DNA of 64,000 nt from assembly GCA_001780035.1 (NCBI GenBank), contig MFEY01000007.1:198343-262342 (forward strand), written 5' to 3'. This stretch comes from Candidatus Doudnabacteria bacterium RIFCSPHIGHO2_12_FULL_48_16 (GTDB lineage: Bacteria; Patescibacteriota; Doudnabacteria; UBA920; O2-02-FULL-48-8). Made by a program: the position numbers and the translations under genes. Under the pieces are notes generated by a model that searched no databases, was not told where the DNA came from, and saw only the letters and a program-made list of their open reading frames with translations. Below, piece after piece: positions 4,001-35,159 of this stretch; the stretch's first letter is position 1, and every line of letters starts with the position of its first letter.

Positions 4001-5140
4001 GGCAGTGGTCATCTTGTTGCCAACGAGTGGCAAACCGGAGACCGACGCGCCGCCGGAGAGAGCGACTGAGGTCAATGTGAGCGAGATGGTCTTACCAGAG
4101 GAAGTGCCGTTCGCCAAATCAGCCTTGACAGTGACGACACGGCTGGAGTTGGCAGGAACGGTGAACAAACCGGAAGAGTTGGTGAAGGTCGCAACTCCAT
4201 CAGAGTAGGAGTTGTATTCGGCCAATCGGGTGCTGCCATCATACAAGTAGATGTTGGACAAATCCGAGTTGGACGAAATACCGGTTCTCTTAACCGTGAC
4301 AGTCGTCACGACTGAAGCGGCAGAACCAGCGGTGAAGTTGACAGACAAGAACGGGATCAACGCTTGCGCGCCGTCGCCGGAAGTGGTGTCAGCAATGACT
4401 GAGGTAGCCACCGGGGTGGAAGCTGCGAGCGAAACGCTCAGAGCGCCGGAAACCGGAGGAGTGGTTGTGCCAGTGGTTGAGCAACCCGGGCGGGAGGCAA
4501 CCGCACCCTGGTCAGCCATAGCCAAGTCATAAGAGTTGGCTGCGACGACGTGGGCGAGATTGTAGCCAAATGAGCTAAAGTTGGCCATGGATGAAAAACC
4601 CATGCGGCCACTTGTACCCATCAGCCAGATTGCGCCATTGGAGATAACCTTGACACCAGCTGGGTGCGCAACTGCGCTGGAATCCAGGTTGGCGCCGGTG
4701 GAGAGATCGGCAAAGGTGTTGGCCGGAGCGGATTGGACGTTAGAGAAGCTAAATCCAAGACCGGTGAAGACCGAACCTGAGACGAATCCACGCTTTTGAC
4801 CGTTCGTCACTAAGTAAACGAGCGGGTCAGACGGACCTTTTACCAAGGTGCCGTCAGCGTAGGTCATAATAGGGCCGACTGGCAAAGCGACGTCTTCAGT
4901 GGTGGCAGTGACAACTTGCGAGAAGTTGTAACCCCAAGACTGGAAGACTTCAGCTGACGTGAAACCACGTCGGGTGCTGTTGGTGATCATCCAAACAACA
5001 CCGCCAGAGAGCACTAAACAACCTTCTGTGTGTACAGCAGCGGCAGCGAATGACGGGATAAGGCCGATTGACGCCCACAGGATTGTGGAAGCAGCCAAGC
5101 CGGCAGCCATTGCTTTCCGTGCTTTAGAAGATAATTGCAT
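1022..5140 (-). CDS. Giant cell-surface protein (1372 aa), S-layer/adhesin-like, Thr/Ser/Gly/Ala-rich with Ig-like repeat array
   Basis: Signal peptide (MQLSSKARKAMAAGLAASTILWASIGLIPSFAAAA). Three N-terminal ~60-aa repeats (G..R.GF.S..VF.S.GY.FS.V), then a long low-complexity beta-rich T/S/V/A region. AGGAGAA RBS, strong terminator downstream at about 947-976. Confidence 0.6.
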   Translation of the reverse strand: MQLSSKARKAMAAGLAASTILWASIGLIPSFAAAAVHTEGCLVLSGGVVWMITNSTRRGFTSAEVFQSWGYNFSQVVTATTEDVALPVGPIMTYADGTLVKGPSDPLVYLVTNGQKRGFVSGSVFTGLGFSFSNVQSAPANTFADLSTGANLDSSAVAHPAGVKVISNGAIWLMGTSGRMGFSSMANFSSFGYNLAHVVAANSYDLAMADQGAVASRPGCSTTGTTTPPVSGALSVSLAASTPVATSVIADTTSGDGAQALIPFLSVNFTAGSAASVVTTVTVKRTGISSNSDLSNIYLYDGSTRLAEYNSYSDGVATFTNSSGLFTVPANSSRVVTVKADLANGTSSGKTISLTLTSVALSGGASVSGLPLVGNKMTTATVADLGKLTINTFTSFPATIDPGLNDQEVWRFNLVSADQIIEVSKLNLTLVGTVATTDLQNIKLKYSGVQVGSTVQVASDNSVLFDLSASPISLTSGQTKTITVHADIVGGTSRSFKFTIRKSSDIAAKDMNYGVSLKPNQTDTLAIIEPETGNGTDINSGTVTVTKASDSPTGNVTAASTGVTLAKFNIKASGEAVKISTIIVGTVLTVSGDDAGLDNGKLFVDGSQVGTTTDLDTDNTAEATFVDTATASPDDDTTFSLGNTFIIPAGVTKVLTVVADTKDATGGALTAASTIKVSVGGMVATGQVSLATITIASSDANTVTTATGALTEAINNAMSSATVANPTGVKGATNVKIGSFVLTAGTGEGVSVTQIVVGDDPGDATSDFGANFQNLRMMYGSTQIGVTQGELSDTEGVDFTFNASPAFTIAAGQQAVIDMYADILTNAANYATAEVGLEYVSVSATGAVTGSSASDATAADLQSLVIASTGSVTVSANSSQPVAGQLIMGESDVTLAMFDFEAGSAEDLQITKIIVTDSTTTPNEFGGSLSNLKLFNGSTQVGSTVTSLSLAVDGTATFNLTTPLVLPRNATTTLTLKGSVNAYPNAVSGGTHSLAIVHATDDVLVIGASSGAAIAETVSSAAGTAQDIYRTKATVALNSASPSGATSESATQEVFRFDVAANSAYDAVVNAVAVTLSGNALLTSSGNANLYKSTDLNTALATEGYQTLTFADNSGGDGGAELTFQVIDVPTDCDGIPVGSTIRVDDGGTYVTGNLVVTVVDSVTGGDCTITFTKNGAAYTVDLDDADILYYRPLQPGTGKLFFGAQTTLTADEANGSTSLNVTSTAGFSTGDTVTVTGYSGTGVATASTAGGVITAIPDATTLTVTAVTLAATIDYDYTSGSTANALTKNHNSAATVTAGLINTSGQTVAAGTTLTFVVKGDTTGANASSTATETITAALAAVGDFTWDDKTSFGIITDTKNIPVNGGTLSY

Positions 5141-8250: not shown

Positions 8251-10377
8251 TCAACTGCAGCTATTCGTGATATTCGGATGCATTCGTAGATTAGGATCGC
8301 GATTGAGTCTGATATAAATATACCAAAATATTGACCAAATGACAAAGCCATCCCATAAGGTAAACGGCAGGTCATTGCCGGTGCGCGGCAGGGTCGCGCC
8401 AAGCACCTGGCCGCTAGCACCCAGGCTGGCGATTTTTATCTGATTCAATTCTCCCGGAGTGGCCAGCAGGCTCCAGGCAAATGTCCCGTCCGGTAATAAA
8501 TTATAGGATTGATTTTTGGGCGCATCTTCGTATTCGAGAGATGAAATAATTTGGCCGGCCGGGTCAATAACCGTGATTGTTTCTTTGCCGGAATTATTGA
8601 GGGCCAGATTGCTTTCGGATTTAAGCAGGACATAATAATGTCCCGGCTCAATTATCGGCGAATGAAAAGTATATTTACTCGCCGCATCCGCCACCTGCCA
8701 ACCATGCAGATCCAACGGCTGGCTGCCAGAATTAAACAGCTCAATAAATTCCTGCCCGCTAGTGGAAGGCTCCGGATACAGTTCGCTGATCAAGAGGCCG
8801 GAACTAACCGGCTCTAGCTCTTCGGGTCTTGCCTCATTGACCGCATTCGGCGTGGGGTCAATCCAAATCCATTGGCCGGCAAGGAGCGCATAGCTCTGGC
8901 CCTCTTTGCCCGCTTCAAAAGTGACCGAATCAATTAAGATTTTATTTTCATTAAACAGCCGCACGGTTTCGCTGCCGGTATTATCGAGTGCAAATCTACC
9001 GGCCGGAATCATGATCACGGCCAATCCCCCGGGATATACGATCGGGCTTTGGATCTTGTAAGCGGAAGATCTGATCGCCTGATCGGATGCGCCATCATCC
9101 AAAATCCAGTTGTGCAGATAAACCGGCTCTGACCCGGTGTTTAAGATCTCGACCCATTCTCCCCCGCTGTCGCTGCCGGCCGGATTCGGAAAAATTTCAT
9201 TAAACTTTATTTGCAATTGCGCCGGCGCGGTGACGGGCGGCGCAACTGCGCCGGCGCCAAACTGATTGGCCGCGCCTTTGGTAACAAAGCTCGTCCAGGC
9301 AAAAGATCCGTCGTCCTGCCGAGCGTAAGTTTCATTTTCTTTGGCTGGTTCTTTGTATGCAACCAATCTTAATTCTTGCTTGTCCGGCCACATCAGGCGC
9401 AAAGTGTCGCCGCCCGTATTGTTGAGTGCGAAACTGCCATCCAGCAGATCGATCACCAAAAATGATTTCGCGGCAACCTTGGTTTGGCCGGGAATGACAT
9501 AAGCGGAAGAACCGACGAGACCTGATTGGCCGGCATCATCCAAAATCCAATCGCTTAAGTCAACTTCGGAACTTGAATCATTGTATAATTCCACCCATTC
9601 TTCTCCGCCATCCGGGCCTTCGGGGTTGGGCGCAAATTCCGAAACCACAATGGCGCTGGAATAAAGCGGCGGCGCGGGAGCGGAGGTGCCGCTCGTTTCT
9701 GCCGGAGGAGTTGCCTCGCTGGCAGGCAACCCGTCCGCAGGCGGGTCAGCTGGCGGCGGCTCCGGCGCGAGCGGCAAGGCCGGCGTTGGGGTCGCCGACG
9801 AATTGCGCGGATGGCCGCTGACTTCCATAAAATCCGTGGAATTATTGTTTGTATCTAGGCCATTGCCCGCCTCCCCGCCAGGCAAGCGTTCAAGTGATTG
9901 GTTCGTGCCTGGGTTAGCGGCAAATGCTGACCCTTCGACAAATGCATTGGTGGCCTGGCCCCAGGCCACGCTGTCGATGATGGCCCCGGTATCATTGGCG
10001 CCATTGCGCAGGGCGACCGCATTGTCATCGGCAATGCTGCCGGTGGTGCTAGTGTCCGGCGCGGCTGAAATATCCGTAAAACTTGAATTGGCCCAAAGAT
10101 AAAAGCCGTGCGCTTTGACAATGGTTGAAGCGGTCCAGGATTTGAGCGCTGTGTCGGTCGTACCGGTTTTGGTCCGCTTGACCAGGCGATAACCTTTGAG
10201 GTCAATATCGGATGAAGTCGGATTGTAAATTTCCACGAAGTCGTTGGTCGTTTTGCCGCTGCCGCCGGTAATCTGGATTTGGCTGATGACCAGGTGGTCT
10301 GTGTCGGCGCGAGCCAGAAACGGCAAAAAGATTAAAACCCCTATAATAAAACAGATTTTTCTTGGTATTGGTTTCAT
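8251..10377 (-). CDS. Lamin-tail-domain (LTD) repeat surface protein with C-terminal LPxTG-type sorting signal
   Basis: Signal peptide MKPIPRKICFIIGVLIFLPFLARA. At least three LTD units (EFAPNPEGPDGGEEWVELYN..DLS.W.LDD; NEIFPNPAGSDSGGEWVEILN; SELYPEPSTSGQEFIELFN). Pro-rich linker. C-terminal LPRTG, then hydrophobic stretch, then RLNR. Confidence 0.7.
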   Translation of the reverse strand: MKPIPRKICFIIGVLIFLPFLARADTDHLVISQIQITGGSGKTTNDFVEIYNPTSSDIDLKGYRLVKRTKTGTTDTALKSWTASTIVKAHGFYLWANSSFTDISAAPDTSTTGSIADDNAVALRNGANDTGAIIDSVAWGQATNAFVEGSAFAANPGTNQSLERLPGGEAGNGLDTNNNSTDFMEVSGHPRNSSATPTPALPLAPEPPPADPPADGLPASEATPPAETSGTSAPAPPLYSSAIVVSEFAPNPEGPDGGEEWVELYNDSSSEVDLSDWILDDAGQSGLVGSSAYVIPGQTKVAAKSFLVIDLLDGSFALNNTGGDTLRLMWPDKQELRLVAYKEPAKENETYARQDDGSFAWTSFVTKGAANQFGAGAVAPPVTAPAQLQIKFNEIFPNPAGSDSGGEWVEILNTGSEPVYLHNWILDDGASDQAIRSSAYKIQSPIVYPGGLAVIMIPAGRFALDNTGSETVRLFNENKILIDSVTFEAGKEGQSYALLAGQWIWIDPTPNAVNEARPEELEPVSSGLLISELYPEPSTSGQEFIELFNSGSQPLDLHGWQVADAASKYTFHSPIIEPGHYYVLLKSESNLALNNSGKETITVIDPAGQIISSLEYEDAPKNQSYNLLPDGTFAWSLLATPGELNQIKIASLGASGQVLGATLPRTGNDLPFTLWDGFVIWSIFWYIYIRLNRDPNLRMHPNITNSCS

Positions 10378-10478: not shown

Positions 10479-11024
10479 TTATTGCCAGTTTTCTATTTTA
10501 GCTTTCAAGATCGTGACGTTCTGGGCAATCCTCAATCGGTCGACTAAAATCTGAAATTCTTTAGGCAATAGGACGGGTCCAATCATCACGCTTTTTTGTA
10601 AATTAGTAAATCCGTTATTTAACAAAAATTTTCTCAAAAACCGCCGGTGGCGCCGCTTGTCTTCTGCAATATCAAAAACAATGACCGTGGCAAACCCATC
10701 AGTCCGCGGGGTCTTGTGTTTGGCCGCATGATTTATTAGCTGTTTCAACTCACCATCAATGGTCAATTGATAGTAAACCTTGTCGTCGGTTCGCTTTTTC
10801 GTGATCAATCCACTTTTTTGCAGACGATGTAATGCCGTTGTAATCGCCGGACCATTATACTGACCGCGCAATTTCTGCCGCAACCATTTATGATGATAGG
10901 CTCGACCCATCAGAGCGGCTGAGTAATACTCGTCAAATCCTTGAAAAAACTCCAATAATTTTCTCGGTAAGGACTCAATAGCTTTATTGACAGCTTTTTT
11001 AATTTTTTTACCTTTTTTAACCAT
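10479..11024 (-). CDS. Winged-helix regulator with C-terminal Cas2/PaaX_C-like domain
   Basis: N-terminal wHTH (LHRLQKSGLITKKRTDDKVYYQLTIDGE). C-terminus TVIVFDIAEDKRRHRRFLRKFLLNNGFTNLQKSVMIGPV resembles the Cas2 beta-alpha core (VIVYDI..DKRR..GxRVQxSV). Confidence 0.45.
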   Translation of the reverse strand: MVKKGKKIKKAVNKAIESLPRKLLEFFQGFDEYYSAALMGRAYHHKWLRQKLRGQYNGPAITTALHRLQKSGLITKKRTDDKVYYQLTIDGELKQLINHAAKHKTPRTDGFATVIVFDIAEDKRRHRRFLRKFLLNNGFTNLQKSVMIGPVLLPKEFQILVDRLRIAQNVTILKAKIENWQ

Positions 11025-11103: not shown

Positions 11104-11568
11104 TTACTCTTTTTTATGGCTTTCTTTTTCCTGTTCTTCCCCGGCTTTTTTGACCTCTTCCGGCAGTTGCTTATACAAAGTGCCCAGCACCCCGTTGACG
11201 AACTTGCCGCTGCTTTCCCCGCCGAAGGTCTTGCCCAGCTCCACCGCCTCGTTGATGGCAACCTTCGGCGGCACCTCATGAGCAAACAAGAGTTCGTAAA
11301 TTCCCAAGCGCAAGATACTACGGTCGATCACCGTAATCTGCTGCAGGGGCCATTCCGGCGCGGTTTTGACGATGATCTGGTCAATTTCCGGGATATGTTT
11401 TTCCACCCCGGCAATCAGATCAAATATAAAAGCGGGATCGTCGAGGCCCGGCGCAAACTGCTTGACATTGTGTTCGGTGATCGCAAGCAGCGAATTTTGC
11501 CGGTCATTGAAATCCCACTCATACAGACTTTGCATCGCGACCGTGCGCGAAAGGTGTCTGTTAGCCAT
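11104..11568 (-). CDS. nusB: Transcription antitermination factor NusB
   Basis: RSILRLGIYELLF...VAINEAVELGKTFGGESSGKFVNGVLG, a classic NusB motif. Confidence 0.9.
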   Translation of the reverse strand: MANRHLSRTVAMQSLYEWDFNDRQNSLLAITEHNVKQFAPGLDDPAFIFDLIAGVEKHIPEIDQIIVKTAPEWPLQQITVIDRSILRLGIYELLFAHEVPPKVAINEAVELGKTFGGESSGKFVNGVLGTLYKQLPEEVKKAGEEQEKESHKKE

Positions 11569-11571
11569 AAT

Positions 11572-11766
11572 TTATTTTTTTACTTTAGCGGTTTTGACCT
11601 TTACCACTTGCCGGCCCTTGTAGAAGCCGCAATTGGAGCAGGCTTCGTGGGGGCGGGACGGGAAATTGCAATTTTTGCAAACAGACAGGTTGGAAGCTTT
11701 GAGATGATCGTGGGAACGTCTCTGGTTTCGTCCGGACCGAGTCTTGTGTTTCTTTGGAACAGCCAT
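11572..11766 (-). CDS. rpmF: 50S ribosomal protein L32
   Basis: MAVPKKHKTRSGRNQRRSH... with a Cys cluster (CKNC...CSNC). Confidence 0.85.
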   Translation of the reverse strand: MAVPKKHKTRSGRNQRRSHDHLKASNLSVCKNCNFPSRPHEACSNCGFYKGRQVVKVKTAKVKK

Positions 11767-12041
11767 GGGATGATTTAGTGATTAGTGATTAGTAGCTATG
11801 AATTTATAACATAAAAATTTGATTTGGTCAACGCCCGATTTAACCTTTATCTGCCTCCGAGCGCCCTTCCCCAACATCTGCCGGCGAACAGGAGATCTGA
11901 CAAGCCTTGCGGCTTTTCAGATTCGCCGGCAGATGACAGGGGGGAACATACGATTGATCGCAGGTTCCCCGAATCGCATCGAGCCTTGCGGCCCTGCGAT
12001 TACTCAATGTCCAAGCACGGACATTTAACCCCCCTTATTGA

Positions 12042-12215
12042 CTAGCTATGCGGATCTGTGTGGGCCTCGAACAATCTGTGCGCGGGACGATCGTGGATCC
12101 AATCATCCGCCTTGTGGCCTTCCAGGAGAAGGACCAGGGCAAAGCCTAAAATCACGACCTCGGTAACCAGAATCCCCAGAACGACCAAGACAACGACGCC
12201 GAAGATCTTGCCCAT
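12042..12215 (-). CDS. Island gene: 57-aa single-TM hydrophobic peptide
   Basis: MGKIFGVVVLVVLGILVTEVVILGFALVLLLEGHKADDWIHDRPAHRLFEAHTDPHS. GGAGG RBS 4 nt upstream. Below the 60-aa track threshold. Confidence 0.5.
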   Translation of the reverse strand: MGKIFGVVVLVVLGILVTEVVILGFALVLLLEGHKADDWIHDRPAHRLFEAHTDPHS

Positions 12216-12236
12216 GCAGCCTCCGTTGAGAAACAG

Positions 12237-12296
12237 CTACCACTCGCGACGGATCGCGAGGCTGACCATTCCGATGAACGCCCCGCCGATCGCCAT
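12237..12296 (-). CDS. Island gene: 19-aa hydrophobic micropeptide (type I toxin-like?)
   Basis: MAIGGAFIGMVSLAIRREW, 21 nt upstream of the 57-aa peptide gene. No clear SD. Confidence 0.25.
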   Translation of the reverse strand: MAIGGAFIGMVSLAIRREW

Positions 12297-12438
12297 GATG
12301 ATCGGCGTCTGAGTGAACGATGCCAGTGGGATTGTAACCCAATACTGCTTGCATTCGCAAGCAATATTCCCACTTCTCCGGGTTTGAAAAAATTTCAAAT
12401 CCAGGGAAGTGGAGAGGAATTGAAAGCGGATATTCTTG

Positions 12439-12664
12439 CTAATCAATTCCTCTGTGGTTTCGCGAGTTATCGCGGACAGCCATCTGCCATCCGCGCCGTT
12501 CCTTGCGACTGCGGGGCTGAGCGGCACCGCCCTCATAGAGGTCGTAGCCGCGCCAGTAGGCTCGCCAGCGCTCGTGGCCGAAGAATTCCCCCCAGGCTTT
12601 CGGGCAGCCGAGCCGATGAAACGGCCACCATCGACGCTGGGGCCGGCAGGCTTCACAGATCATC
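12439..12664 (-). CDS. Island gene: 75-aa Cys/Trp/Arg-rich small protein
   Basis: MICEACRPQRRWWPFHRLGCPKAWGEFFGHERW... Its ATG overlaps the TGA of the upstream membrane gene (ATGA coupling). Confidence 0.4.
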
Positions 12665-13019
12665 GCCAGCTCCGACTTTTGACGGTCAGCCCCAGACCGG
12701 CACGCAGTTGGTTGAGGTAGTATCGCACGGCCGAGCGATACATCCAGCGCGGCCGTTGCATGATCCCCCAGACAATCATGGGGATCAGCACCGGCGCGAG
12801 CAGCAGCTCCACCAATCTGGCCGGTCGGGACCAGTATCGGGAAGCAATCTCGTGCTCGCCCATCCGGACGACGTAGTGGTGAAACGCAATCGCGCCCCAC
12901 ACGCCGAGGCCGATCAACGGCTGTTCGATGGCCAGGTAGTGGAGAATAGCCACCGCGCGGGAGACGACGAGCGAGACGAGCCCACCGATCATGCCGTAAA
13001 GCTCAATCACTGAGTCCAT
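12660..13019 (-). CDS. Island gene: 119-aa three-TM membrane protein
   Basis: MDSVIELYGMIGGLVSLVVSRAVAILHYLAIEQPLIGLGVWGAIAFHHYVV...LLAPVLIPMIVWGIM. AGAAAGAGG RBS. The track ORF 12660..13280 is N-terminally over-extended by Arg-rich translation. Confidence 0.5.
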   Translation of the reverse strand: MDSVIELYGMIGGLVSLVVSRAVAILHYLAIEQPLIGLGVWGAIAFHHYVVRMGEHEIASRYWSRPARLVELLLAPVLIPMIVWGIMQRPRWMYRSAVRYYLNQLRAGLGLTVKSRSWR

Positions 13020-13060
13020 GTATCGCCTCTTTCTTGAATAGCAACATGCCGAATCCCCCT

Positions 13061-13309
13061 TCAGTAATGACGAAATCCGGGCGGCGGCTGGTTGAGCGCC
13101 CTGATAACCCGAAGCAGCACGCGGCAGATCAATATGAGGATGATCAGGTCGTAGACCGCGTAAAGCGCCAGCACGAGGACGGGCACGCCGAGCAGAAAAT
13201 AACCGACGCGCTCGTGGCCGGTCGCGAACGGGATGATCACGATCCCGAGCAGGATCGCGGCGACGAAGCGATACTTCCACGACGGATGAAGTTCAAACTG
13301 CACACGCAT
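13061..13309 (-). CDS. Island gene: 82-aa two-TM membrane protein
   Basis: MRVQFELHPSWKYRFVAAILLGIVIIPFATGHERVGYFLLGVPVLVLALYAVYDLIILILICRVL. ATG 1 nt past the stop of the upstream ORF. Confidence 0.5.
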   Translation of the reverse strand: MRVQFELHPSWKYRFVAAILLGIVIIPFATGHERVGYFLLGVPVLVLALYAVYDLIILILICRVLLRVIRALNQPPPGFRHY

Positions 13310-13496
13310 GGGCCACCTCTTTGAGGAAGTAGTAATCCTTCTGGTTGACCAGGCCGCGCTTCTGGACCTCGGCCAGCCAGACCAGGTAGGTCGGCTACCG
13401 GTCGATGGGCAGCCGGACTTCGATCTCGTCCAGCAACTGCTGGCTCCACGACCCGAGACTGTCGGGCGCGAGCGGCAGATTGCGCCAGGTTGTCAT
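13293..13496 (-). pseudogene. Island gene interrupted by an in-frame TAG (33 aa + 33 aa)
   Basis: MTTWRNLPLAPDSLGSWSQQLLDEIEVRLPIDR-TAG-PTYLVWLAEVQKRGLVNQKDYYFLKEVAHACAV. GTGTGAGGTG RBS context. Coherent peptide on both sides of the amber codon. Confidence 0.35.
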
Positions 13497-13602
13497 ATCT
13501 ATTCACCTCACACAAAAAAAGAACCAACAATTGCAGCCACAATGTAAGGAATTAACCGCGAAAGTTCAAAGACTAAATTCTAGTGTTCTCTTTAACTGTC
13601 GG

Positions 13603-13630
13603 TTAACGCCCTAGCATTCTAGAAACAAAA
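13603..13630. repeat. Island R motif (single copy) TTAACGCCCTAGCATTCTAGAAACAA
   Basis: Matches the TAACGCCCnAGnATTnTnGAAACAA consensus shared with 14256-14282 and 14933-14960. About 108 nt upstream of the next island gene's ATG. Confidence 0.5.
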
Positions 13631-13846
13631 TTTTCAATTTTATATCTTACGTTTCGTTCTTGCGGAACAGGATTCCGATCCTCTGAACTCCATTCATCGC
13701 ACAATGCGATTGAAGTTCAAGGGAAGGGAGGGAGAAGTATTGGCGTACTTGCTCCCGGGGATTTGTTCGGGACTATTTCGCATGAGGACCATGCAACTTG
13801 ATCCACGAAGGAGAGACTTACAAACGGACTCGCCAAAGTCCACTGG

Positions 13847-14146
13847 TTACTCGCACTTGCCGCCTAACTGGTCCTTGGTCATAACGGCAATCTGGCCGCT
13901 CGACGTAGTAAACACGCAGGCGTGACCTCGCTCGGTCACGCGGATGGGATTAGCGATGAACGCCACCAGATGGAATATGATGGCGAAAACGATCACTACG
14001 CACATCAGCTTGAATGCGAAGACGGCGCTATTGATGTCGTTGAGAGTGTTGTTCGCACTCTCGAGAACGTTGGTGTCAGTCACCCACTGCGCGAATTTGG
14101 CAGTGGCTTCATCCACGAGTTCTTTTACCCGCTGACCTGAATACAT
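13847..14146 (-). CDS. Island gene: 99-aa protein with central TM helix
   Basis: MYSGQRVKELVDEATAKFAQWVTDTN...LMCVVIVFAIIFHLVAFIANPI. GTGTGAGGTCAAA-ATG RBS context. Confidence 0.55.
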   Translation of the reverse strand: MYSGQRVKELVDEATAKFAQWVTDTNVLESANNTLNDINSAVFAFKLMCVVIVFAIIFHLVAFIANPIRVTERGHACVFTTSSGQIAVMTKDQLGGKCE

Positions 14147-14203
14147 TTTGACCTCACACTTGCTTAGCTAAGAGTGTTGACGAAACTACGAACTTTTGTT
14201 TTC

Positions 14204-14282
14204 ACGATTCTGGGTGCTAAGTTTAACTTTCAAGGCTGTATAACTGAATTCATCCTTAGTTCTAACTAACGCCCAGGATTGT
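14204..14282. repeat. Island long imperfect palindrome (R-motif pair)
   Basis: TTGTTTTCACGATTCTGGGTGCTAAGTT ... AACTAACGCCCAGGATTGTGGAAACAA: about 24-bp arms with G-T wobbles, 24-nt loop. Confidence 0.55.
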
Positions 14283-14409
14283 GGAAACAATTTCCCTTCC
14301 GAAACTCTCAAGTTCTACTTACTGATTACTATTTACTGCTTACTTGAGTTCTTTGGAAGGGAGAGAGGAACCGGAAGGGATTGGACCTTCACGTTTCCTC
14401 TCAACTTGT

Positions 14410-14706
14410 CTAGCGTTCGTACATGGCGCCGCGGGGCTCTGGCTGACGCCAGAACGGGGTCGCGATGGATCCGGTGCAGACCATCTTCGGCGCGTGCTCC
14501 GCGATCGCCTTGCGCCGCATGTCGGCCGCGAACTCGTGCTCGGTCAGCGGGACGACCGGTCCGGCGATGTGCAGCTTGCGCTGCGCGTGGTGCACAGCCA
14601 CCCTGACCGCCTGGTGGAAGTTGGTCGCGTTCGTGACCTCGATGGTCACGGGCGGCATGCCGGGAAAAAGAGCCGAGGCGACGGGCAGTGCGAGTGTCAT
14701 GTTCAT
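14410..14706 (-). CDS. Island gene: 98-aa hypothetical protein
   Basis: MNMTLALPVASALFPGMPPVTIEVTNATNFHQAVRVAVHHAQ... GTGTGGAGGAC RBS context 8 nt upstream. The track ORF 14410..14724 starts slightly earlier. Confidence 0.5.
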   Translation of the reverse strand: MNMTLALPVASALFPGMPPVTIEVTNATNFHQAVRVAVHHAQRKLHIAGPVVPLTEHEFAADMRRKAIAEHAPKMVCTGSIATPFWRQPEPRGAMYER

Positions 14707-14870
14707 GTACTCTGTCCTCCACACGAGTTACCGAGTTTATTTTATTTGATCCAGCTGAGTGTCAGCCGGCACTGTTCGATACGAATCCTTTTTGCCCTTG
14801 AGACTTTCTTCGTGACAGTCTTTCGGGGCTTGTGCGTGTTTCTCTCATCTTGCACCCCTTTTGTTTTCAA

Positions 14871-14960
14871 AATTCTGGGGACTTATCTGATTGCTAGAGG
14901 GCAAATATATAATTTCCCTGCTAAATCGAGATAACCCTCCCAGAATCCTGGAAACAACCC
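14871..14960. repeat. Island long imperfect palindrome (R-motif pair)
   Basis: TTGTTTTCAAAATTCTGGGGACTTATC ... GATAACCCTCCCAGAATCCTGGAAACAA: about 25-bp arms, 36-nt loop. Confidence 0.55.
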
Positions 14961-15169
14961 CGACGCTTTGGTCAGGATAATTTCGCTCTTGCGAAATTAA
15001 AAAAGGTCCTTGCAGGACCAAAATGCGCTGATGCTTATTCGGTCCTGAACGAATAAGCACGACTATTCATTTTTAAAACAACATATAAGTATAGTCCGAT
15101 TTGGGGGGCTTGTCAAGAGATAAGGGTAGATAAGGGCTAGAGTTAGCCAAAAAGTGGTTAGTGGGCAGT

Positions 15170-15240
15170 GTTTAGTGGCTAGTTTAAAGCCCGGGAATTC
15201 CCGGGCTTTCTAATCACTAACCACTATTCACTAATCACTC
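15170..15240 (-). terminator. groEL terminator: AAAGCCCGGGAATTCCCGGGCTTT hairpin inside a ~30-nt imperfect inverted repeat (TTAGTGG / CCACTAA repeats)
   Basis: Perfect GC hairpin immediately after the groEL stop, flanked by AGTGGTTAGTGGGCAGTGTTTAGTGG and its imperfect complement. Confidence 0.5.
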
Positions 15241-17188
<1,948 letters not shown>

Positions 17189-33597: not shown

Positions 33598-34329
33598 TTA
33601 CGTCTGCTCCGGTTCCGGATGGGCCAGCATGGCCGCCTCGAGCCGATCCCATTCGTCCTTGGGCTTCCAGGCCACGTTGCCTTTCTCAATCTCCGCGGCG
33701 ACTTCCGGATCCTCCTGCTGGTATTGCGGCAGCGGGTCGTGGATCAGACTGACTACCGGCACGCCGAACCACACCCGATGGAGCGACCGGTTAAAGAACC
33801 CGGCAATAGCCACCGCCATGGCGCTCTTGCTCCCTACAAGGGCGACCCCTTCGCCCGTGGTCCGGAAGTTGTTCAGGACGTCGTCAGCCACGATCACCCG
33901 GTCATCCGGATCGAGATCGTGCCGTCCCAGAATGAGTATCGACTTCTCCCGGCTGGTCGACGTCGCCAGCGCGACGACCTTCCTATCGGCGTAGATCACA
34001 CGACAGGCCAATGCGCGGGCGATACTGTCGGCGACAAGAATCCCGCCCATGGGCATGCCCATGACGACGGTCGGATTGAACGGGCGCAACCGGTCGATCA
34101 TTTTGACCGCCCATTCATCGTAAACGAACCGATACTGCTCGATGGGAGCGAAGTTAAGGTAGACATCGCCCACATACTGCAAACCGGTGACCGGATCACA
34201 TTCGGTGTAGCCGACAACCGGTCCCAGCCATTCGCGATTCGGGCCCCGCGGGCATTTGTAGTAGCCTTTGAGCCCCCGCATCAAGGCCCGCGGATCCTTC
34301 TGGATCGCATCGATTCGTGTCAGTTTCAC
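33598..34329 (-). CDS. pyrE: Type I phosphoribosyltransferase (putative orotate PRTase)
   Basis: PRPP-binding loop RVIVADDVLNNFRTTGEGV. GTG start with GAAGGAGGAGG RBS. Adjacent to pyrF. Confidence 0.5.
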   Translation of the reverse strand: MKLTRIDAIQKDPRALMRGLKGYYKCPRGPNREWLGPVVGYTECDPVTGLQYVGDVYLNFAPIEQYRFVYDEWAVKMIDRLRPFNPTVVMGMPMGGILVADSIARALACRVIYADRKVVALATSTSREKSILILGRHDLDPDDRVIVADDVLNNFRTTGEGVALVGSKSAMAVAIAGFFNRSLHRVWFGVPVVSLIHDPLPQYQQEDPEVAAEIEKGNVAWKPKDEWDRLEAAMLAHPEPEQT

Positions 34330-34365
34330 GGCCTCCTCCTTCAGCCGCGTGGCGCGCGGCTTGTT

Positions 34366-35070
34366 TCAGTTGGTTACGGCGCTGATCTGCGCGACGATAT
34401 TGGCAATCGCCGCCTTCGGATCCGCGGCTTCGCTGAATTCACGACCCACCACGATGCCGCTGGCGCCATTCTTGAACGCATTCTCGTGCGTGTCGACCCG
34501 GGCCTGGTCATCCTGCTTCACACCTGCGGAACGGACTCCCGGCGTGTAGAACGGCAATCCCTGCAACTCACGCCGCTTGCTGAGCATCGCCAGCTCCTGC
34601 GGGGAGCAAACGATTCCGTTGAGCTCGACCAGCTTCGCGTTCCGCGCACGCTGCAGGACGACAGCTTTCGAGGGCTGGCCGGTCGTCAGGTGCACTTCCT
34701 CCTCGCCAAGCGAGGTGAGTGCCGTGATCCCCCAGACTTCGATCTTGCCGTCCGCGCCATCGAGCGCGCCGTAGAGCATGTCGATCCCGCCGGCGATGTG
34801 CACCGTGACGATGTCGGCCGCGGACTTGCAAACAGCCATGACGCGCTTCTTCGCAGTCACCGGGATGTCCTCGATCTTCAGATCGGCCATCACTTGCGCG
34901 ACGGCAGTGTCGTCCTTGAGCATCTGTGCGACACTCGGACCGCACTCATCCCAGAGATCATGGATCTTCGCGGCCTTGATCCATCCCATGAGCTCTTCGA
35001 GTTGCTTCATCTTCTCGACAGCCTGATTGTATCCCAAGCCATCAAGCGCCAGAATAATCAGTGGCTTCAT
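34366..35070 (-). CDS. pyrF: Orotidine 5'-phosphate decarboxylase
   Basis: ILALDGL, DLKIEDIPVT (D-x-K-x-x-D-I-P catalytic motif), VHIAGG, WGITALTS, IVVGR. Start at internal MKPLIILALDG with GAAGGAGAAG RBS. Confidence 0.8.
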   Translation of the reverse strand: MKPLIILALDGLGYNQAVEKMKQLEELMGWIKAAKIHDLWDECGPSVAQMLKDDTAVAQVMADLKIEDIPVTAKKRVMAVCKSAADIVTVHIAGGIDMLYGALDGADGKIEVWGITALTSLGEEEVHLTTGQPSKAVVLQRARNAKLVELNGIVCSPQELAMLSKRRELQGLPFYTPGVRSAGVKQDDQARVDTHENAFKNGASGIVVGREFSEAADPKAAIANIVAQISAVTN

Positions 35071-35159
35071 CCCTGCTTCTCCTTCTGAATTCACGCACCC
35101 ATTCATGGGCCGTGACAATATAGAATACCAAACGGGGGCATTGGTAAGCAAATGCAAAA

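Follow-up and report, generated by a model that had tools for sequence, protein, structure and literature searches.

Introduction

Hairpins lie between the genes of the early and late transcripts of phage T7, where they are processed by RNase III, and in bacterial operons, where repetitive extragenic palindromic (REP) elements and bacterial interspersed mosaic elements (BIMEs) act as intercistronic stabilizers. The Correia elements are inverted repeats of about 100–150 nt that exist in hundreds of dispersed copies and are co-transcribed with their neighbors. In the genomes of Cluster K mycobacteriophages, start-associated sequences (SAS; 13 bp) and their extended forms (ESAS) immediately precede the start codons of some genes, and tandem type I toxin-antitoxin repeats are represented in Escherichia coli by LDR and sib/ibs. 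Finally, the clusters of attC sites lacking an integron-integrase (CALIN) are, by definition, devoid of an IntI-type tyrosine recombinase. Here, we describe a small-gene array with structured intergenic repeats in Candidatus Doudnabacteria bacterium RIFCSPHIGHO2_12_FULL_48_16, from the Rifle aquifer. The array fills the interval between groEL and rpmF (positions 11767–15240, minus strand) of a 64,000-nt stretch of this genome (contig MFEY01000007.1; hereafter, the window) and is a candidate replacement hotspot. We read it, with about even confidence, as a lineage-specific and operon-like array of small, mostly membrane and orphan genes that turn over rapidly at a fixed site between groESL and rpmF-nusB and are punctuated by hairpins in the sense-strand RNA.

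The hairpins of this array share several properties with the T7 sites and the REP/BIME elements: they are long, imperfect and located between cistrons, on the transcript strand and shortly 5′ of ribosome-binding sites, and their G·U-tolerant, sense-specific structure fits a role in RNA. Sites of the RNase III type are recognized by a double-stranded RNA stem that lies between cistrons on the transcript strand and has a length of about 20 bp or more, and the stems found here are imperfect, measure about 45 bp and usually end 20–55 nt before a start codon. In contrast to these known elements, they are longer, occur at one locus, are conserved in sequence beyond structural need and belong to genomes in which rnc is not beside nusB. 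As in the minimal mobile elements of Neisseria, different genes are found between conserved flanks in a competent organism with no dedicated recombinase: the interval varies from 1.2 to 6 kb in 11 genomes, its flanks are conserved, no recombinase was found, and ComEC and DprA are encoded. Unlike the Correia repeat-enclosed elements, however, the hairpins are confined to one interval and one orientation, and the differences are between species rather than between strains. The conserved repeat with inverted-repeat extensions near start codons is reminiscent of SAS/ESAS and suggests shared translational control; the window also reuses the Shine-Dalgarno (SD) context GTGTGAGGT. It differs from SAS/ESAS in being a hairpin of about 100 nt, in a bacterial chromosome and with variable gene content.

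A fixed site with variable gene content

The initial annotation of the window had placed an island between the genes of ribosomal protein L32 and NusB on one side and groESL on the other. This position is correct: the array is bounded by groEL (15241–16890, minus strand) and by rpmF (ribosomal protein L32; 11572–11766, minus strand), next to which lies nusB. We retrieved the loci of relatives through NusB for the GTDB species genomes and through L32 for metagenomes (loci are designated below by L and a number). Every Doudnabacteria-like relative with enough sequence presents the gene order groES-groEL-[variable interval]-rpmF-nusB. The interval spans 1.2–6.0 kb in the 11 relatives having both flanking genes; in L010, groEL was not found within 9.7 kb upstream of rpmF and the stretch measures at least 9.7 kb. 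An interval of this kind was thus recovered when the corresponding junction of relatives was inspected, a check that the annotation had proposed, and it is a family-wide feature of the groEL-rpmF interval.

The arrays of the relatives contain one to six hairpin copies. Between species, blastn aligns the first ~180–400 nt of the interval (groEL terminator, promoter and leader), the hairpins, a few short non-coding modules and the hairpin upstream of rpmF; it does not align the open reading frames (ORFs) of the array. Orthologous hairpin subtypes hold their position while the intervening genes differ from one species to the other. Conservation across species extends to the site, the promoter with its leader, the family of hairpins and the tail hairpin, but not to the genes. 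The cassette-like layout that the annotation had described is real in the sense that co-oriented small orphan genes lie between conserved imperfect palindromes. These genes decay, as seen from a nonsense codon in ORF C and a deletion in ORF G of the window, and they duplicate, as seen in L092, where a tandem paralogous cassette pair presents 50% amino-acid identity.

The annotation had also raised the possibility of a chimeric assembly. A segment of 3.9 kb including both junctions is 99.9–100% identical in contigs of independent ENA, JGI and NCBI assemblies, and this recurrence excludes a chimera. The array sequence was found in at least 23 contigs (read from 36–38 index blocks), whose differences amount to one 172-nt deletion and five single-nucleotide polymorphisms (SNPs).

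Punctuation hairpins

Three imperfect hairpins of about 100 nt, which we call hairpin c, are spaced by ~665 nt on the minus strand of the window (fold z = −5.2, −3.1 and −2.1). Copy 1 (type I; 14858–14960) is 82–89% identical to the copies of L096, L092, L011 and L097. Copy 2 (type II; 14193–14293) ends 46 nt before the start of ORF B and has an ortholog in L096 (7865–7965; 86.5%), and copy 3 (13528–13631) ends 31 nt before the start of ORF C. The hairpin has a base of the form 5′-TTGTTT...AAACAA-3′ and an imperfect stem of ~45 bp. A repeated 26-nt motif and long imperfect palindromes had been noted in the spaces between the genes; both are present, and the motif (CCCAGAATYNTGRAAACAA) is an arm of this hairpin, with five matches in the island and one weak match elsewhere (0.34 expected).

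We built a covariance model from the three hairpins of the window and one from L011 and rebuilt it from 21 copies. The model identifies ~30 copies, all of them on the gene-sense strand and inside the groEL-rpmF interval (~45 kb in total): three in the window, four each in L096 and L105, five or six in L092, three in L097, two each in L108 and L010, one or two in L102, and one each in L011 and L110. Zero copies were found outside the interval in 1.19 Mb from 79 sources, including ~60 other lineages of the Candidate Phyla Radiation (CPR), and neither the remaining 60 kb of the window nor the sequences flanking 10 arrays contain any. A two-arm pattern of the hairpin, which does work locally, found nothing in collections of metagenome or viral contigs, where such contigs are perhaps lacking or were missed by the gapped scan. 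A single-arm pattern gave six matches in IMG/VR, all of them due to chance according to the covariance model, and a pattern of the tail hairpin gave 0.

The type I hairpin is 82–89% identical between species, compared to 72–77% for groEL DNA and 71–76% for rpmF-nusB. Across 21 copies, 90.8% of the cells of the 16-bp basal stem are paired, and 11 of the 16 pairs present compensatory double changes. None of 500 shuffles performed as well, and registers slid along the alignment pair at 34–51%. G·U pairs are more frequent than A·C mismatches (51 vs 10; the nominal P = 1e-7 overstates independence, since the copies are related) and canonical pairing reaches 90.8% on the sense strand versus 78.6% on the antisense strand. 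Because the stem covaries and G·U exceeds A·C, the structure is selected on the sense strand; the hairpin is structurally constrained on the gene-sense strand. Judged by GC skew, this strand is the lagging-strand template.

The apex of the hairpin is variable in sequence and length (68–169 nt) and tolerates nested GC-rich insertions. Nested GC-rich hairpins of 30–70 nt, with the base intact, are located in the apex of copies in L092 (1861–2029), L105 (8725–8861) and L097 (5403–5533). In ~16 of 28 cases, 20–55 nt separate the end of the hairpin from a start codon with a strong SD sequence. In a few cases, the SD sequence or ATG is within or beside the purine-rich 3′ arm, and one copy of L092 (3016–3111) has both inside the stem.

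Promoter, leader, spacers and tail

The groEL gene is followed by a terminator (AAAGCCCGGGAA/TTCCCGGGCTTT; 15150–15240, minus strand) that is nested inside a longer stem formed by (TAGTGAT)n heptamers and their complement, as is also the case in L096 and L105. Downstream, a promoter of the sigma-70 type, TTGACA-17 nt-TATACT (15088–15116, minus strand), matches the consensus at 11 of 12 positions. Its TTGACA is perfect and its −10 element is conserved in L010, L011, L092, L096, L097 and L105, that is, in seven species with the window. The leader contains a hairpin (P1; 15031–15060, minus strand) whose stem differs in a compensatory manner between species and whose 8-nt loop UUCAGGAC (15042–15049) is identical in four of them (window, L092, L096 and L105); the loop is UUCAGGAG in L097, and the leader is divergent in L010 and L011. 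An intrinsic terminator follows (GGTCCTGCAAGGACC then T6; 14999–15019, with arms at 15005–15019 and a U run; minus strand). Complementarity between the 5′ arm of this terminator and the P1 loop exists in four of five species and suggests an attenuator or a small RNA with read-through. The leader might accordingly correspond to an attenuator or riboswitch-like element, or to a small RNA gene of ~80–130 nt. Counterparts of the leader of the window (14999–15116, minus strand) are located at 5080–5290 in L096, 1650–1860 in L092, 6640–6770 in L105 and 5250–5400 in L097. Readings of the P1 loop (CAGGA) as similar to the RNA of the signal recognition particle or as a CsrA site were rejected: there was no Rfam match, and no CsrA in the sequence examined.

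Smaller hairpins, a (GAGAGGAAAC...GGTTCCTCTC) and b (TCCCTTCC...GGAAGGGA), lie as pairs between ORFs and present a pyrimidine-rich 5′ arm of the CTCCCTTCC type. One pair is located at 14293–14400 (minus strand), and similar units are found at 12367–12455 and in L011 (7400–7497). An nhmmer profile of these units recovered only its own seeds. The second unit belongs to the spacer 3′ of ORF F (12331–12455, minus strand), which also contains a hairpin (12342–12367) and a weak promoter-like site (12360–12331). In this hairpin, the window and L004 (GCA_001780075.1, 10640–10700) are distinguished by two SNPs, at 12346 and 12363, which are compensatory and change a U-A pair into C-G.

At the left end, the non-coding and highly structured DNA that had been reported is confirmed: four adjacent hairpins occupy 11835–12041 (−94.9 kcal/mol, z = −5.8). 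The last of them is the tail hairpin (11865–11945, minus strand), which has the form CTGCCGGCGAA...[inner hairpin]...CTCCTG-TTCGCCGGCAG in the window and the consensus ATCTGCCGACGAA...[inner hairpin]...CTCCTG-TTCGTCGGCAGAT in the clade. Twelve of its 18 outer pairs show compensatory changes, and CUCCUG is invariant and unpaired. Exactly one tail hairpin is found per locus in 22 clade loci, always 5′ of the rpmF promoter and nowhere else (e.g., L105 9841–9929 and L096 9713–9804). It is a candidate insulator, terminator or protein-binding site. The rpmF promoter read directly from the sequence (TTGACC-17 nt-TATAAA; 11803–11831, minus strand) is conserved in the clade. The 5′ untranslated region (UTR) of rpmF, a gene without obvious SD sequence, consists of G-poor (CTAATCA)n heptamers (11776–11798, minus strand) that are complementary to the heptamers after groEL. 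In relatives, heptamers are found at 4955–5050 in L096 and 6420–6530 in L105, and just upstream of rpmF in L092, L102 and L107. We rejected the idea that these inverted heptamers are transposon ends, since they form part of the groEL terminator stem and of the rpmF 5′ UTR in relatives.

Searches of Rfam 15 (4227 families) yielded only tRNAs above the gathering thresholds, nothing relevant at E ≤ 10 in 11500–15400 and nothing relevant at E ≤ 1 in L010 and L011. Literature searches returned no description of such arrays in CPR. The statement of the annotation that this is not a described system therefore stands: it matches no Rfam family, no protein family library and no publication returned by the literature searches.

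Reading frames of the array

The annotation had listed at least seven short minus-strand ORFs with good SD sequences. We count nine in 11767–15240 (a0 and A–H), including a frame of 28 codons (a0) that was absent from its list, and an SD-like purine run is found 5–8 nt ahead of every start codon by direct reading of the sequence. ORF a0 (14762–14848) encodes a small basic protein of 28 aa and starts 9 nt past copy 1 of hairpin c. ORF A (14410–14706; 98 aa) encodes a soluble protein and is the only gene of the array with relatives in other species. Its family profile matched five proteins out of 5.8 billion, all from this clade: ORF A and four relatives, among which those of L102, L011 and L105 present 48%, 38% and 31% identity, respectively, in an alignment resembling that of a genuine protein family. 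An AlphaFold2 model of ORF A built without alignment was unusable (pLDDT 49). A small and very basic ORF (28–49 aa; motif ER[LI]xR[RF]...) lies between the type I hairpin and the homolog of ORF A in the window (14762–14848), L102 (103–240) and L105 (6886–7035). Its recurrence in three species suggests that the a0-like ORF and ORF A may form a conserved two-gene module.

ORF B (13847–14146; 99 aa) is an orphan with a central transmembrane (TM)-like segment. ORF C (13395–13496) is limited to 33 codons by an in-frame TAG (13395–13397), after which 33 further codons remain open (to 13296). It is probably a nonsense pseudogene; a reassignment of TAG is unsupported and the pseudogene is the simpler explanation. 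ORFs D (13061–13309; 82 aa) and E (12660–13019; 119 aa) each contain two or three TM-like segments, and no true homolog of the orphan E was found among 1.84 billion cluster representatives. ORF F (12439–12663) encodes 74 aa rich in Trp, Arg and Cys (6 Trp, 16 Arg+Lys and 3 Cys). ORF G (12237–12296) is a remnant of 19 aa corresponding to the 3′ end of the gene of a 70-aa membrane protein; a 172-nt deletion took its 5′ part, and the 70-codon gene is intact in strain GCA_001780075.1 (L004). Finally, ORF H (12042–12215; 57 aa) has an N-terminal TM-like segment. The description of these products as mostly TM peptides with one Cys/Trp/Arg-rich protein applies to B, D, E and H and to the composition of F, but A, C and F lack TM-like segments.

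Two other features reported for the frames were recovered in part. An ATGA overlap joins E and F at 12660–12663, but the one proposed at 13307–13309 is the ATG of ORF D, 14 nt inside the post-TAG frame of C. An initiation context shared by three genes is exact at two of them (GTGTGAGGT at 13505–13513 and 14151–14159; 0.13 expected), but the third site (about 14715–14724) has only the variant GTGTGGAGGA.

No product of the array had a significant match in Pfam, PHROGs, NCBIfam or PADLOC; with ORF A having only four relatives, the absence of recognizable homologs was well observed in the annotation. Among 67 candidate array ORFs of the relatives, about six have a Pfam match (DUF5715 twice, zf-HC2 twice, MHYT and LysM), and proteins of 150–300 aa occur in these arrays. 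In L010, a 153-aa array ORF contains a perfect tandem duplication of 69 nt (8869–9006) that doubles the motif HLEDCAHCRAA (zf-HC2, anti-sigma-like). Based on their SD sequences, on the excess of GC3 over GC2 (GC-content of third and second codon positions) and on the conservation of the ORF A family at the protein level, we predict that the reading frames of the array are real genes.

Base composition

The island had been described as GC-richer than its flanks. This holds for the ORFs, whose GC3 is raised (0.70–0.89 vs 0.44–0.73 in 42 host genes) and exceeds GC2 as in real genes, but the overall excess is slight (53.2% vs 51.1% for the window) and 20% of 3.5-kb windows are equally rich. The island is a mosaic of GC-rich ORFs (54–68%) and AT-rich spacers (37–40%), and 12.4–13.0 kb is the richest 500-nt window of the whole 64 kb. 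Among relatives, the interval is GC-richer than the rest of the locus in 17 of 17 loci. The view of a GC-rich foreign island is weakened, because the interval occupies the same site in 11 of 11 relatives with both flanks, pointing to vertical inheritance of the site, and no donor homologs were found.

Alternative explanations

The annotation had compared the array to an integron-like array or a CALIN. Under this explanation, the hairpins would be single-stranded DNA recombination sites of a recombinase encoded elsewhere, and cassettes would be captured, excised and reshuffled as in a sedentary chromosomal integron. The two systems are alike in their co-oriented and mostly orphan small genes, in their cassette-sized units (about 500–1200 nt) of one orientation, in their imperfect hairpins of 60–170 nt with a conserved base and, as in attC, a variable apex that tolerates insertions, and in a fixed chromosomal site whose content differs between species. 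Orthologous hairpins flanking unrelated genes, and a favored strand that is the lagging-strand template and transiently single-stranded, also agree with such a platform. However, no IntI- or Xer-like gene was found in the window or any locus: tblastn of IntI1 and XerC against the window and 183 loci returned nothing at E < 0.01, and no tyrosine recombinase was detected, either in the 64 kb of the window or at up to ~10 kb from the related arrays. R″/R′ boxes are absent as well, with 0 complementary pairs of RYYYAAC...GTTRRRY at 47–140 nt in a regular-expression scan of both strands of the island (shuffles averaged 0.2); the annotation itself had reported neither integrase nor canonical R-boxes, and rightly so. 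The TTGTTT...AAACAA base is the reverse of the attC polarity (5′ arm with AAC, 3′ arm with GTT), and it is the ORF-sense strand that carries the structure, as opposed to the bottom strand on which attC folds. Moreover, the array is identical in 23 contigs, with no shuffling seen within the population, many junctions are without hairpin, and the hairpin subtypes are fixed while the genes change, so that a hairpin does not travel with its own gene. No hairpin copies were found in IMG/VR, phage or plasmid collections. The comparison with integrons thus fails on most of its specific points and we regard this explanation as unlikely. It is also unlikely that the hairpins are selfish repeats, similar to miniature inverted-repeat transposable elements (MITEs) or REP sequences, that multiplied locally in a permissive and decaying acquired island with eroding foreign or spurious ORFs devoid of function. 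Such an origin would account for the palindromic architecture with ~19-nt terminal arms, the nested insertions of some hairpins, the two pseudogenes among the nine frames of the window, the orphan status of most ORFs and the contigs that often break within the array. Yet no copy was found outside the interval in ~1.2 Mb against ~30 inside ~45 kb, all copies have a single orientation, and their position relative to start codons is fixed. The many copies, in both orientations and often with target-site duplications, that characterize dispersed repeats were not found in the window and the flanks of 10 arrays, where neither target-site duplications nor a transposase were seen. Conservation extends to the promoter, leader and tail, and the conservation of the hairpins above groEL, their compensatory changes and their strand-specific G·U excess imply purifying selection over many millions of years.

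Two further explanations concern the genes themselves. The annotation had mentioned a cluster of small membrane toxins or of bacteriocin-immunity genes; in this case, toxins would be encoded next to antitoxin or immunity partners (type I toxin-antitoxin or bacteriocin-immunity), with hairpins as fold-back structures blocking toxin translation. The array resembles tandem type I toxin-antitoxin loci by its modules of ~500–700 nt in tandem, its several hydrophobic peptides (57–119 aa) and its structured untranslated regions, in which hairpins b and c pair an SD-like, purine-rich 3′ arm with a pyrimidine-rich 5′ arm and where the SD sequence and ATG of L092 3016–3111 are in the stem. It differs from them by peptides that are unrelated between modules and not repeated, by the lack of detected antisense RNA genes (no plus-strand promoter/terminator pairs were found in the island) and by many products that are soluble (A, C and F) or longer than 100 aa (150–300 aa in some proteins of relatives). 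No toxin, immunity or defense model of Pfam, NCBIfam or PADLOC matched, and leader-peptide, double-glycine and transporter genes are absent. Hydrophobicity aside, the evidence goes neither way, and we consider this explanation improbable. A remnant of a prophage, satellite or defense island inserted between groEL and rpmF would explain the GC3 above that of host genes, the small orphan genes in a single orientation and the inverted heptamer repeats at both ends. This origin is largely refuted and very improbable: the same promoter, hairpins and tail are found at the same site in all clade members, which indicates vertical inheritance, and in relatives, too, the heptamers are part of the 3′ UTR of groEL and of the 5′ UTR of rpmF. 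There was no PHROG or PADLOC match and no integrase, and blastn of the island against phage and plasmid collections gave no match, nor was any similarity to IMG/VR found.

Proposed mode of operation

If the locus is an operon-like array with RNA punctuation, as we propose, transcription would start from the conserved sigma-70-type promoter and proceed through the leader, where pairing of the P1 loop could oppose the terminator. The ~100-nt hairpins would then act in RNA, perhaps as sites of double-strand-specific processing or of stabilization, by which the long transcript is divided into separate messages or the ends of these messages are shielded. A hairpin with the SD sequence in its purine-rich 3′ arm could serve as a translational operator, and the tail hairpin may insulate or close the unit ahead of the rpmF promoter. 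The turnover of the genes would result from duplications, deletions and decay, and probably also from homologous exchange for which the hairpins and flanks provide anchors; the organism has genes for ComEC and DprA. The products, which would be under rapid turnover, probably belong to the envelope or mediate interactions with a host.

Several observations weigh against this proposal. We infer transcription, processing, regulation and translation from sequence comparisons, as well as the way in which the genes turn over and the function of their products. The strand asymmetry of the hairpin fits sense-strand RNA and also that strand as single-stranded DNA, which computation cannot separate. Some junctions have no c-type hairpin: D, E and F follow one another by direct coupling, and the 4.3 kb of L102 contain one or two copies. 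That the hairpins are more conserved than groEL suggests that a putative, sequence-specific partner recognizes them. The gene of RNase III (rnc) directly follows nusB in ~75 other CPR loci (e.g., L069 10567–11157 and L040 10574–11206) but not in the Doudnabacteria clade, and neither the window nor the surroundings of the clade loci yielded an RNase III. Finally, this proposal does not account for the GC enrichment of the interval, seen in all 17 loci.

A bolder and doubtful reading is that of a previously undescribed diversification platform, in which a putative partner would recognize a fixed scaffold (the promoter with its attenuator, the sense-strand hairpins with their specific sequence, and the hairpin at the end) and let small envelope genes be born, swapped or silenced at a high rate. 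The partner may be a nuclease or recombinase acting on single-stranded DNA of the lagging template, or an RNA-binding protein.

Neighboring genes

A Pfam survey of 42 proteins of the window (best 25 of 64 families) indicates that the surrounding genes are housekeeping genes of the Patescibacteria/CPR type, such as DnaK/DnaJ/GrpE, FtsZ/FtsA and topoisomerase I. The competence proteins ComEC and DprA are both encoded within the 64 kb. After nusB, a gene at 10479–11024 (minus strand) encodes a 181-aa protein with a winged helix and a Cas2-like (PaaX_M) domain. This gene was considered as a partner of the array and dropped for want of synteny in relatives. Another protein, of 708 aa (8251–10377, minus strand; three genes away from the array), combines a signal peptide, repeats of the lamin-tail domain (LTD) and a linker rich in proline, and is likely a surface protein. 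A second GC-rich stretch (up to 63.8% GC) is located at 33600–35100; it contains a long plus-strand ORF (33619–35088) with an odd GC1 of 0.77 that may be in the wrong strand or frame.

Significance

The genomes of CPR/Patescibacteria are tiny and have very few accessory regions, and the source of their surface and host-interaction diversity is an open question. In the clade described here, a single locus beside essential genes concentrates orphan small membrane proteins framed by a leader, a punctuation hairpin and a tail hairpin. These three structured motifs have no match in Rfam or in what the literature searches returned, and they are more strongly constrained than groEL. Hairpins with a role in RNA would represent a new class of elements for operon punctuation and regulation, from an uncultured phylum, and a role in DNA would make the locus a new cassette system. 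The locus also yields searchable covariance models and a concrete place to study the turnover or birth of orphan genes. Should the diversification platform prove true, it would be functionally analogous to the integron and mechanistically unrelated to it, and possibly central to the adaptation of these episymbionts to their hosts.

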